24,222 nt of DNA from an uncultured Gammaproteobacteria bacterium (GTDB lineage Bacteria; Patescibacteriota; Patescibacteriia; Patescibacteriales; UBA12465), in assembly GCA_964367805.1 (NCBI GenBank), contig CAYIZC010000001.1, forward strand, positions 1 to 24,222, in the 5' to 3' direction. Both the position numbers and the translations under genes were made by a program. Positions 15,370-16,907 of this stretch are shown piece after piece. Position 1 is the stretch's first letter. Every line of letters begins with the position of its first letter. Below the pieces are notes generated by a model, which searched no databases, was not told the origin of the DNA, and worked only from the letters and a program-made list of their open reading frames with translations.

Positions 15370-15397
15370 AGGTGTATTAATATACATTATGCGAAGT
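15370..15397 (-). other. dif-like Xer recombination site (11-6-11)
   Basis: - strand ACTTCGCATAA TGTATA TTAATACACCT versus E. coli dif GGTGCGCATAA TGTATA TTATGTTAAAT, with 16 consecutive identical nt (CGCATAATGTATATTA). Intergenic and close to the xer gene. Confidence 0.8.
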
Positions 15398-15410
15398 ATT
15401 GATGAGTAGT

Positions 15411-15443
15411 AAAAAGGCCTAGAATAAACATTGTTTCTAAGCC
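15411..15443 (-). terminator. Probable intrinsic terminator for the 59-aa ORF, just before the dif-like site
   Basis: - strand GGCTTAGAA...TTCTAGGCC stem (one G-U pair) followed by TTTTT. Confidence 0.55.
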
Positions 15444-15469
15444 CTGCTCTTTTAAACCTTTTAGTTTAA

Positions 15470-15495
15470 GGTGGGTAGCTTCAAGACTACCCACC
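15470..15495. other. GC-rich hairpin (terminator or RNA stability element)
   Basis: Perfect 9-bp stem GGTGGGTAG / CTACCCACC with an 8-nt loop, 30 nt past the 59-aa ORF stop; the U-tract is weak. Confidence 0.6.
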
Positions 15496-15525
15496 AAATT
15501 CTACTTCAACCTTGTGTTAAAGCAC

Positions 15526-15705
15526 TCATCTTTTTGATTGCTCGAGCTTAAGTTCTTTTAGCGGAACGTTTCTTCTTTCTGAATAAAGAGAAGAACAAAG
15601 CTCCTCAACGTAAACCTTATGCTCGGGCATCTCAACTTGGAGTCGTTTAAATAAGTAAAAACTCATGTCCAAGTTCCATAACCTGTTGTCAAATAATACA
15701 ACCAT
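15526..15705 (-). CDS. Hypothetical protein, 59 aa (not in ORF track)
   Basis: MVVLFDNRLWNLDMSFYLFKRLQVEMPEHKVYVEELCSSLYSERRNVPLKELKLEQSKR*. SD GGGAGGAG 5 nt before the ATG, with its own promoter and downstream hairpins. Confidence 0.75.
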   Translation of the reverse strand: MVVLFDNRLWNLDMSFYLFKRLQVEMPEHKVYVEELCSSLYSERRNVPLKELKLEQSKR

Positions 15706-15765
15706 AGTTACTCCTCCCTTTTTTAAAATGAAACACTAAAGTTATTTATCACAATAACTCCTTTC

Positions 15766-15794
15766 ATTATATACCAATATATAGTGCCTGTCTA
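15766..15794 (-). promoter_or_regulatory. Near-consensus sigma70 promoter for the 59-aa ORF
   Basis: TAGACA (15794-15789), 17 nt, TATAAT (15771-15766). A 7-bp inverted repeat AGTTATT/AATAACT (15740-15759) starts at the predicted +1. Confidence 0.65.
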
Positions 15795-15897
15795 GCTTAT
15801 ATCCTCTAAAAGCTCTAATTTACGAGCCCACCTAAGCTCCGTCCTCGTTTGGCAGGTCCTAACATACTGCTAATATTTTTAATTTTAGCGATAAGTC

Positions 15898-15924
15898 TGC
15901 TATAATAAGGGTGTAAACACCTTT
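15898..15924 (+). promoter_or_regulatory. Extended -10 promoter of xer with an operator-like palindrome over +1
   Basis: TG-c-TATAAT (15898-15906) followed by GGTGT-AA-ACACC (15910-15921). Confidence 0.6.
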
Positions 15925-15953
15925 TCCCTTTATTTTTTTTAAATAATATATAC

Positions 15954-16907
15954 ATGCTGCAACAGCCGATAAGAAAATATTTAGGCGACTATCTAGACTA
16001 CCTTGAAATAGAAAAAGGTCTATCTTCTAAAACTCAAGAGAATTATAGTCGTTTTTTAAATAAATTTTTTAATTACCTTCAAGAAAACAATCTAGAGCAC
16101 CTAAAAGCCAAGGATATTGACAGTGATCTGATTTGGAAATATAAAGTATATCTTTCTCGTCATGTAAATAAGAGAAATAATAAGTCTTTAAAAAAAACTA
16201 CTCAAAACTACTATCTAATTGCTCTTCGCTCACTGCTAGACTACTTTTTAGAAAAAAATATCACTTCCCTGCCGCCTTCAAAAATAAAACTAGCGAAAGA
16301 TAAAGCTGATCGCGACATTAAATTTCTCAAACTAGATCAATTAGCGCGACTACTAGACTCGCCTGACGCTAGCACCCCTATTGGTAGACGTGATAGAGCC
16401 ATACTTGAATCTTTGTTTTCTACTGGCCTTAGAGTAGCAGAATTACAAGCTTTAAATCGAGATCAATTAAAGATAAAGGATGACACCGAGCTCTTAGAAA
16501 TTGCCGTTGTGGGAAAAGGTGAGAAGATTAGAACGGTTTACTTTTCCAAGCGAGCGGTCACTTCCCTACGCGACTACCTTAAGGGACGCTATGACTTTGA
16601 TGAAGCTTTGTTTATTAACTACAGGCGTGGAGCAGAAAATAGTGACGCCGACCGCAGGTTAAGTATTAAAAGTATAGAAAGTATAGTAAAGAAATATGTT
16701 ATTATTTCTGGCCTGCCAGTTATGGCCACTCCACACACCCTTAGACACTCCTTTGCCACTGACTTACTTAACCAAGGCGTGGATTTGCGAACTGTGCAAG
16801 AGTTTTTAGGACATAGCAATATTGCCACCACTCAAATATATACTCACGTTACCAACAAACAACTCAAAGATATACATAAAAAAATTCACAACAATAGAGA
16901 TCTTTAA
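15954..16907 (+). CDS. Xer-type tyrosine recombinase (XerC/XerD family)
   Basis: N-terminal SAM-like domain (YLEIEKGLS.KT..NY); full catalytic set in TGLRVAEL, GKGEKIR, HTLRHSFAT and LGHSNIATTQIY. XerC versus XerD cannot be assigned. Confidence 0.93.
   Translation: MLQQPIRKYLGDYLDYLEIEKGLSSKTQENYSRFLNKFFNYLQENNLEHLKAKDIDSDLIWKYKVYLSRHVNKRNNKSLKKTTQNYYLIALRSLLDYFLEKNITSLPPSKIKLAKDKADRDIKFLKLDQLARLLDSPDASTPIGRRDRAILESLFSTGLRVAELQALNRDQLKIKDDTELLEIAVVGKGEKIRTVYFSKRAVTSLRDYLKGRYDFDEALFINYRRGAENSDADRRLSIKSIESIVKKYVIISGLPVMATPHTLRHSFATDLLNQGVDLRTVQEFLGHSNIATTQIYTHVTNKQLKDIHKKIHNNRDL

Follow-up and report, generated by a model that had tools for sequence, protein, structure and literature searches.

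Is a sequence that resembles the dif site of Escherichia coli in one arm, departs from it in the other and lies close to a lone Xer recombinase gene the place where a bacterium resolves its chromosome dimers, or does it only look like one? The question is raised by a stretch of 24,222 nucleotides (the whole stretch analysed is called "the window" below) that makes up the entire contig C1 of an assembly of 730,928 bases in 132 contigs, 91% complete. The closest xer loci belong to Candidatus Falkowbacteria or to the Patescibacteria or Parcubacteria group, and many binned assemblies titled "Gammaproteobacteria" sit within the Xer clade of the window. We think it very probable, judging from sequence, that the site is the chromosomal dif of a single-recombinase Xer system of Candidatus Falkowbacteria (Patescibacteria/CPR), forming a module with xer at the terminus of replication. 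The features on which this reading depends are collected in Table 1.

Table 1. Features of the window around the dif-type site and its recombinase gene.
Feature	Position	Strand	Remarks
Left flank	14306..15284	+	ftsQ-like POTRA gene 14306-15142; 46-aa ORF (orf46) 15144-15284; end of + strand replichore
dif-type recombination site	15368..15399	-	28-bp core 15370-15397 plus one conserved AT dinucleotide per side (13-6-13)
Core, 11-6-11	15370-15397	-	ACTTCGCATAA-TGTATA-TTAATACACCT; 11-nt conserved arm, 6-nt spacer TGTATA, 11-nt weak arm
Strong arm	15387..15399	-	ATACTTCGCATAA; arm closer to xer; invariant among sites compared
Weak, lineage-specific arm	15368..15380	-	TTAATACACCTAT; 7/13 positions in common with inverted strong arm
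dif-xer spacer	15398..15953		556 nt, species-specific; 59-aa ORF (15526-15705, -) and promoter-like site (15794-15766, -)
xer	15954..16907	+	317 aa; sole tyrosine recombinase gene found in assembly; resembles XerC and XerD alike
Right flank	16989..18224	-	M23 peptidase gene; first gene of - strand replichore
Five AGGGAAG words	4172..12520; starts 4172, 7156, 8630, 11405, 12514	+	all point toward site
Six AGGGAAG words	16264..23000; low coordinates 16264, 16561, 18297, 19231, 20152, 22994	-	all point toward site

The initial annotation had described a minus-strand 28-mer sharing 16 nucleotides with E. coli dif, with an outer second arm unlike that of XerD. Both points hold: the printed E. coli sequences agree on the 16 consecutive nucleotides CGCATAATGTATATTA (PMC3025954, PMC2731167), and the last 8 nt of the second arm differ. 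The likeness to the dif of Thiobacillus denitrificans extends to 20 nt, corresponding to the whole first arm, the spacer and TTA, and the strong arm also matches the dif of Methylobacillus (PMC2731167); it is identical to the XerC-side arm of some beta-proteobacterial dif sites. The general build is that of any dif, i.e. a single-copy site of about 28 bp with two inverted arms round a spacer of 6-8 bp. No second copy of the 28-mer was found in the assembly with up to eight mismatches allowed, no such site arose in 100 shuffles of the window, and Rfam and tRNA scans of the whole window gave no matches.

How widely is this site shared? With at most one mismatch, the 16-nt core occurs once in 19/24 genomes of the same genus and is found in 8/16 from other families of the order, while the reversed control pattern gave one match across 41 genomes. 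The pattern of the conserved arm, again with at most one mismatch, is present in 165 of 301 genomes of the order and is nearly always single. A phylum-wide scan with the shorter pattern TCGCATAA-N6-TTAA matched 46/401 genomes, about as many as its reversed control, so that the exact arm is specific to the order and is no marker of CPR overall. Related sites, about 100 nt or less from xer, nevertheless accompany distant Xer relatives labelled Nealsonbacteria, Wildermuthbacteria and Saccharibacteria.

A dif that resolves chromosome dimers should lie at the terminus, and three independent signals (GC skew, gene orientation and a polar word) place the site there. GC skew in the window is +0.093 to the left of the site and -0.123 to its right: the cumulative maximum is at 15,417, 20 nt off the site, and in the single-contig relative CP066698.1 (genome G005; 977,025 bp, titled "chromosome") it is 58 bp off. 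In that relative dnaA lies at the opposite switch, 52% of the chromosome away from the site; the distance is 56% in the second single-contig relative, OW818634.1 (G007; 895,742 bp). The skew changes sign within 4.3 kb of the site in three further relatives and within 13 kb in two, while in five of the 13 relatives (G007, G016, G250, G294 and G203) it merely steps down there and keeps its sign. No skew change at the site was seen in two of the 13 (G092 and G219), where gene orientation and the polar word still flip.

Because the skew is not clean everywhere, tests of gene orientation and of polar words were added. On either side of the site, most open reading frames longer than 150 aa are directed toward it in all 14 genomes (the window and 13 relatives). 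An unbiased count of 7-mers in 1.3 Mb round the sites ranked AGGGAAG first in polarity (234 copies toward the site, 5 away from it), and this polarity reverses at the site in 14/14 genomes. Within frames that oppose replication the word points toward the site 42 times and away once; it therefore follows the replichore and is not explained by the orientation of genes. Two of the six words on the right side of the window lie inside xer itself, opposite to its coding direction. AGGGAAG thus behaves as would be predicted for a KOPS-type guide word read by FtsK.

FtsK with its gamma domain is present in four relatives (G005, G007, G016 and G033). The FtsK of the window's genome, 728 aa long versus 853 aa in a relative, gives no match to PF09397, which at first sight might be taken as loss of the domain. 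This is an artefact: a scaffold gap of 100 N falls exactly on the gamma region of the gene, so that the apparent absence is uninformative. Gamma domains in relatives, together with guide words that converge on the site, fit a system that FtsK would control.

The second question is whether the site belongs with the recombinase gene. The initial annotation had noted an intact Xer gene 556 nt past the site, and this is correct: the gene encodes a complete tyrosine recombinase (PF00589, 2.5e-38) with a SAM-like domain followed by the catalytic domain, in which all six residues of the R-K-H-R-H-Y set are conserved when the protein is aligned to XerD (1a0p). It had also supposed that site and gene are kept close together. 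The linkage stands, since 66 of 80 related loci have the motif upstream of xer, with the conserved arm always facing the gene, and xer adjoins the site in all 13 long contigs; the spacing of the window itself is atypical, 48 of the 66 linked loci having only 12-160 nt between site and start codon. This outlying gap is due to the species-specific insert that holds the 59-aa frame and the promoter-like site. Among the loci compared, the insert is common only to the nearest relative (91% nucleotide identity), and a paralog of the 59-aa frame, 44% identical, lies on contig C112. The order in related loci is ftsQ-like gene, small ORF, site, xer and M23 peptidase gene, and the flanks are kept in at least 65 of the 80 loci (ftsQ-like 65/80, orf46 33/80, M23 peptidase 68/80). 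Site and gene thus form one module, in the manner of XerS and difSL.

Such closeness invites another explanation, namely that Xer regulates its own promoter by binding the motif, which would then be chiefly an operator and not a site of dimer resolution. The usual position, 50-160 nt upstream of xer, would suit an operator, and in two genomes (G116 and G027) an additional strong arm, standing alone, lies directly next to a TG-n-TATAAT box some 25 nt ahead of the start codon of xer. An operator, however, has no need to sit where skew, gene orientation and AGGGAAG all switch in 14 genomes, no need of a 6-nt spacer identical to that of canonical dif, and it would not act as an integration site for a phage (see below); moreover, the window has 556 nt between site and xer, with another gene and a distinct promoter-like site in that interval. 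We therefore regard an operator as the main role as improbable, although it fares somewhat better than the other alternatives. With the site usually 50-160 nt ahead of xer, a bound Xer may in addition lower the transcription of its gene, and we regard autoregulation as a possible side role of a dif.

The departure of the second arm from the canonical sequence is the most unusual feature of the site, and the comparison of related sites suggests how it came about. Among 47 distinct sites of the genus type, little or no variation is seen in the conserved arm, in the AT next to it or in the spacer. In the weak arm it is positions 1-5, 8-9 and 11 that are kept, its neighbouring AT less strictly, and the rest is free; the skeleton in the genus is TTAAT-nn-AC-n-T. 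Sister lineages of the order carry other versions of the second arm, TTAATTAACGT, TTAATCGAAGT and the near-palindromic TTAAGCGAAGT, the last of which agrees with the inverted strong arm at 10/11 positions (5/11 in the core of the window), and one genome has a perfect palindrome. In the tree of Xer proteins the degenerate arm marks the clade of the window (42 rows, support 100/97), where it is general save for one genome with a phage insert, and the more symmetric arms are found in the remaining clades. In four lineages (loci L141, L169, L172 and L177) the same change has occurred in both arms, which is what one protein reading both would predict. Given the clade-wide skeleton, the symmetric relatives and these joint changes, the second arm is a native half-site under weak constraint, which has drifted within the genus, and not foreign DNA.

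We also considered repeated rewriting of the weak arm by phages as a general cause of its variation, and found it unsupported: lineages with a palindromic arm keep the tight spacing between ftsQ and dif without any remnant, and stepwise intermediates exist between the types of arm.

One congener, G703 (locus L110), does carry an insertion at the site, and it is instructive. This genome lies within the clade of the window and has a palindromic arm, its sister (L135) having the degenerate one, and homology between the two begins inside the site. From its ftsQ-like gene to the site there are 5.2 kb, versus about 0.23 kb usually, and right after the ftsQ-like gene and the small ORF come the native weak arm and the spacer, followed by sequence that is unrelated. 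An insert of 5 kb has thus split the site of G703, and each of its junctions has the spacer. The insert has a gene for an assembly ATPase of the Zot/pI type found in filamentous phages (PF05707, 4.5e-13; PHROG 197), besides a row of small ORFs. It is the palindromic arm that was brought by the phage, and the degenerate arm that was native. The phage's own site had a perfect arm opposite the weak arm of the chromosome and a non-arm opposite its strong arm; with arms mirrored in this way, integration leaves a strong/strong site beside xer and a weak/weak junction far off. A search of G703 for a second site with the arm pattern returned background matches only, and the distal junction, which has the non-arm on its phage side, was found by searching for the native weak arm.

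A spacer present at both junctions is the hallmark of Xer-mediated integration, and the insert would thus provide natural, if indirect, evidence of recombination at this same site. In being integrated in a dif, with the spacer duplicated at both ends, and in encoding a Zot/pI-like protein, it resembles the elements that exploit host Xer proteins (IMEX), such as CTXphi, VGJphi and TLCphi of Vibrio and LME-1 of Legionella (PMC9765430, PMC9226527); it differs from them in that its host, a CPR bacterium, has only one Xer, and in that the phage site is perfect where the arm of the chromosome is weak. No match to the insert was obtained at 1e-8 by tblastx among 120 viral contigs that bear the arm and spacer, many of which probably come from proteobacterial phages, since the beta-proteobacterial dif has the same arm. 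Inoviruses have been reported for CPR hosts, in a paper that makes no mention of dif or Xer.

The case of G703 bears directly on an alternative that the initial annotation had itself raised, that the site of the window is a hybrid (attL or attR) left by a mobile element exploiting Xer, with the odd arm derived from the element. Such hybrids do exist in the genus, as the phage-borne arm beside xer in G703 shows, and contigs end at the site in three relatives (G039, G201 and G025). For the window itself, however, this explanation fails, because there is no insert: the flanks are ancestral and syntenic, with the ftsQ-like gene and orf46 on one side and xer and the M23 peptidase gene on the other, so that the foreign DNA on one side and the partner hybrid that mark an IMEX junction, both found in G703, are lacking here. 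No second site or complementary hybrid turned up in the assembly; none of the four exact copies there of the XerD-type 11-mer TTATGTTAAAT falls on a match to the dif core. The weak arm is also shared by the whole clade apart from the genome with the phage insert, in which it is the palindromic arm that is foreign. We consider a hybrid origin of the window's site very unlikely.

The number of recombinases remains to be considered, and here the count suggested at the outset gave a clear answer: one PF00589 match in the window's assembly, and exactly one in each of the two single-contig genomes, so that the two paralogous recombinases of an XerCD system are found in none of the three. Of 25 genomes of the genus, 14 have a single PF00589 gene, that of the window among them, and the additional recombinases of the other relatives are mostly open frames of 370-450 aa (a few are shorter), none of which adjoins the site. 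The protein itself scores below the equivalog cut-offs of both XerC (225 bits, cut-off 335) and XerD (218 bits, cut-off 330), as well as that of XerA (NF040815; 193.6 bits, cut-off 220), and it matches XerS (NF003462) with 111 bits against a cut-off of 267 and in its C-terminal half only. Its best matches in the PDB are XerD and then the XerA structures 4a8e (6e-29) and 5hxy (2e-23); the XerH structure 5jjv is matched in the catalytic domain only (1.4e-13). By these measures the window's Xer is neither an ortholog of XerH or XerS nor an XerA equivalog. That this is an ordinary XerCD/dif system whose second recombinase is missing from an incomplete assembly, as the 132 contigs and 91% completeness of the genome and the identity of strong arm and spacer with the XerC side of proteobacterial dif might suggest, is hardly credible in view of the two single-contig genomes with one PF00589 each, of extra recombinases in relatives that are mostly longer and lie away from the site, and of arms that co-vary and are near-identical inverted copies in sister lineages.

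The single-Xer system acting on an asymmetric dif that was first proposed for this locus thus finds support in several kinds of evidence, i.e. the single copy and conservation of the site, its fixed linkage to xer, the signals of the terminus, the count of one recombinase and the insertion in G703, all of which are consistent with such a system.

Single-recombinase Xer modules are already known, namely XerS, XerH, XerA and XerL. The XerS/difSL system of streptococci and lactococci comes close in having one recombinase with its site directly beside the gene (PMC1914069, PMC2965235). XerS binds one arm of difSL strongly and fills the other cooperatively, with asymmetric strand exchange (PMC1914069, PMC2965235), and the combination of one high-affinity arm, one weak arm, dependence on FtsK and a polar host word would have its counterpart in the window. 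The difference is that difSL is a 31-bp site with an 11-bp centre, whereas the window has a 6-nt spacer, a core like that of canonical dif and a protein that is not XerS. With XerCD/dif and its FtsK-KOPS system the window shares the 28-bp 11-6-11 layout and 16-20 identical nucleotides that include the XerC-side arm and the spacer (PMC2731167), as well as the position at the terminus, converging polar words and (in relatives) the gamma domain of FtsK. It differs in having one recombinase, no XerD-type arm and a site linked to the gene; the arm that is conserved here is, moreover, the one that varies more in XerCD systems. Archaeal XerA, too, is a lone recombinase with a 28-bp site of 11-6-11 layout, which in some species is found together with xerA, but XerA needs no FtsK and its site often lies elsewhere than opposite the origin (PMC5357621). 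Here, FtsK with gamma occurs in relatives, there is a KOPS-like word, and the site lies about 180 degrees from dnaA in the closed relatives.

As a class of proteins, Xer-related tyrosine recombinases of candidate phyla are already recognised, under the name of the "Cand" subgroup (Smyshlyaev et al. 2021, PMC8138268), and the window's Xer plausibly belongs to it. Passages of that paper which describe the subgroup name neither a recombination site nor a position at the terminus or a linkage to a gene. In the literature outside subscription journals we found no description of a dif site, terminus position, guide word or Xer-exploiting phage for CPR. What the present case adds is a comparative account of a site with one strong arm, a clean demonstration of its position at the terminus and a dissection of phage junctions.

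How would such a site work? By analogy with XerS/difSL, one Xer monomer would bind the invariant arm tightly and a second would be loaded cooperatively onto the weak arm. Two sites on a chromosome dimer would then synapse as a tetramer of Xer, and strands would be exchanged where the 6-nt spacer meets the arms. Guided by words of the AGGGAAG type, FtsK would probably join the two copies at the septum and turn the reaction on, and the asymmetry of the arms would decide which pair of monomers cuts first. The order of binding, the choice of first strand and the dependence on FtsK are all borrowed here from XerS and XerCD.

One may speculate further that the design with one strong arm is functional and bound up with filamentous phages, the weak arm making recombination need FtsK at the septum. 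We hold this idea to be rather doubtful. If it were true, integration would build a symmetric, strong dif beside xer, and the dead weak/weak junction would lock the prophage in; drift of the weak arm between lineages could then reflect selection by phages besides relaxed constraint.

CPR bacteria (Patescibacteria) account for much of the diversity of bacteria, and to our knowledge almost nothing is known of how they segregate their chromosomes. The combination of dif, xer and a polar word offers an exact marker of the terminus, with which assemblies of metagenome-derived genomes can be checked and oriented and estimates of growth based on replication can be placed. The same marker helps to find phages and other elements that integrate there, the filamentous-phage-like insert being an example. 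The system is small, one protein of 317 aa and one site of 32 bp, and is easily testable in E. coli. Finally, the natural series that leads from palindromic sites to sites with one strong arm provides material for understanding how a single recombinase orders the exchange of strands.

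The dif site of G703, a congener within the Xer clade of the window, is occupied by a prophage of 5 kb that resembles a filamentous phage (locus L238, G703:C3:47200-52700) and encodes a Zot/pI-like ATPase, a 478-aa ORF and several small ORFs. The strong arm occurs once more about 40 nt inward from the xer-side end of this prophage, here with TGTCGA after it. CPR-type sites are also carried by small IMG/VR viral contigs of 4-14 kb (L270, L258, L306, L299, L328, L340), where a strong arm or partner arm is followed by a TATACA spacer and then by TTAA-type or non-arm sequence; these contigs may represent filamentous phages of CPR bacteria in their free form.

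Three genomes from one genus of the window's order have an additional dif-like site, ACTTCGCATAA-CGCACAT-TCAAGCGAAGT, in which both arms are good but the centre differs from the dif spacer and is one base longer. These sites are close to the ends of small contigs, and may be plasmid or phage sites mimicking dif.

Contigs end at the dif site itself in the assemblies of three relatives, two of which have paired contigs with a 55-nt overlap that includes the site. G201, one of the three, has its break at the outer boundary of the weak arm, and this position suggests population variants (inserts) on the weak-arm side of dif. In five other relatives, GC skew is near zero over 40-50 kb on one side of dif and normal beyond, although gene orientation and the polarity of AGGGAAG still flip exactly at dif in all five.

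Features of the window and its relatives (G, genomes; C, contigs; L, extracted loci)
Feature	Location	Strand	Remarks
59-aa ORF	window 15526-15705	-	between dif and xer; Shine-Dalgarno sequence
Promoter-like site of this ORF	window 15794-15766	-	11/12 promoter match
Prophage junctions	G703:C3:47498 and 52549
Solitary strong arm + TG-n-TATAAT	L220 4685-4706 (G116); L221 3186-3213 (G027)
ACTTCGCATAA-CGCACAT-TCAAGCGAAGT sites	L222 2982 (G100:C95); L223 279 (G177:C46); G193:C121:4389
Contigs broken at dif	G039:C5/C6; G201:C14/C18; G025:C118		L029, L030, L224, L225, L003
Near-zero skew	G007:C1 about 85-135 kb; G016:C1 beyond 305 kb; also G250, G294, G203

The assembly of the window's genome (G000) contains nine 100-N scaffold gaps, one of them within ftsK (G000:C42:1802-1901; L038 1168-1267). 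The in-frame deletion that this gene seems to have is a mere appearance, the gap taking out the region of the gamma domain. As for record titles, the Falkowbacteria-type xer-dif locus is present in many MAG records named "uncultured Gammaproteobacteria bacterium", and in single records named Planctomycetota, Nanoarchaeia or Saccharimonadales, all of which look mislabelled.

Among the loci compared, the 59-aa ORF is common only to the window's genome and its nearest relative and, judging from its 90% amino-acid versus 91% nucleotide identity between the two, looks to be under weak constraint; a paralog, 44% identical, is found on contig C112. Finally, in two relatives (G116 and G027) a solitary strong arm, ACTTCGCATAA, directly abuts a TG-n-TATAAT box about 25 nt upstream of the xer start codon and 180-470 nt from the true dif, and may be an operator through which Xer regulates its own gene.
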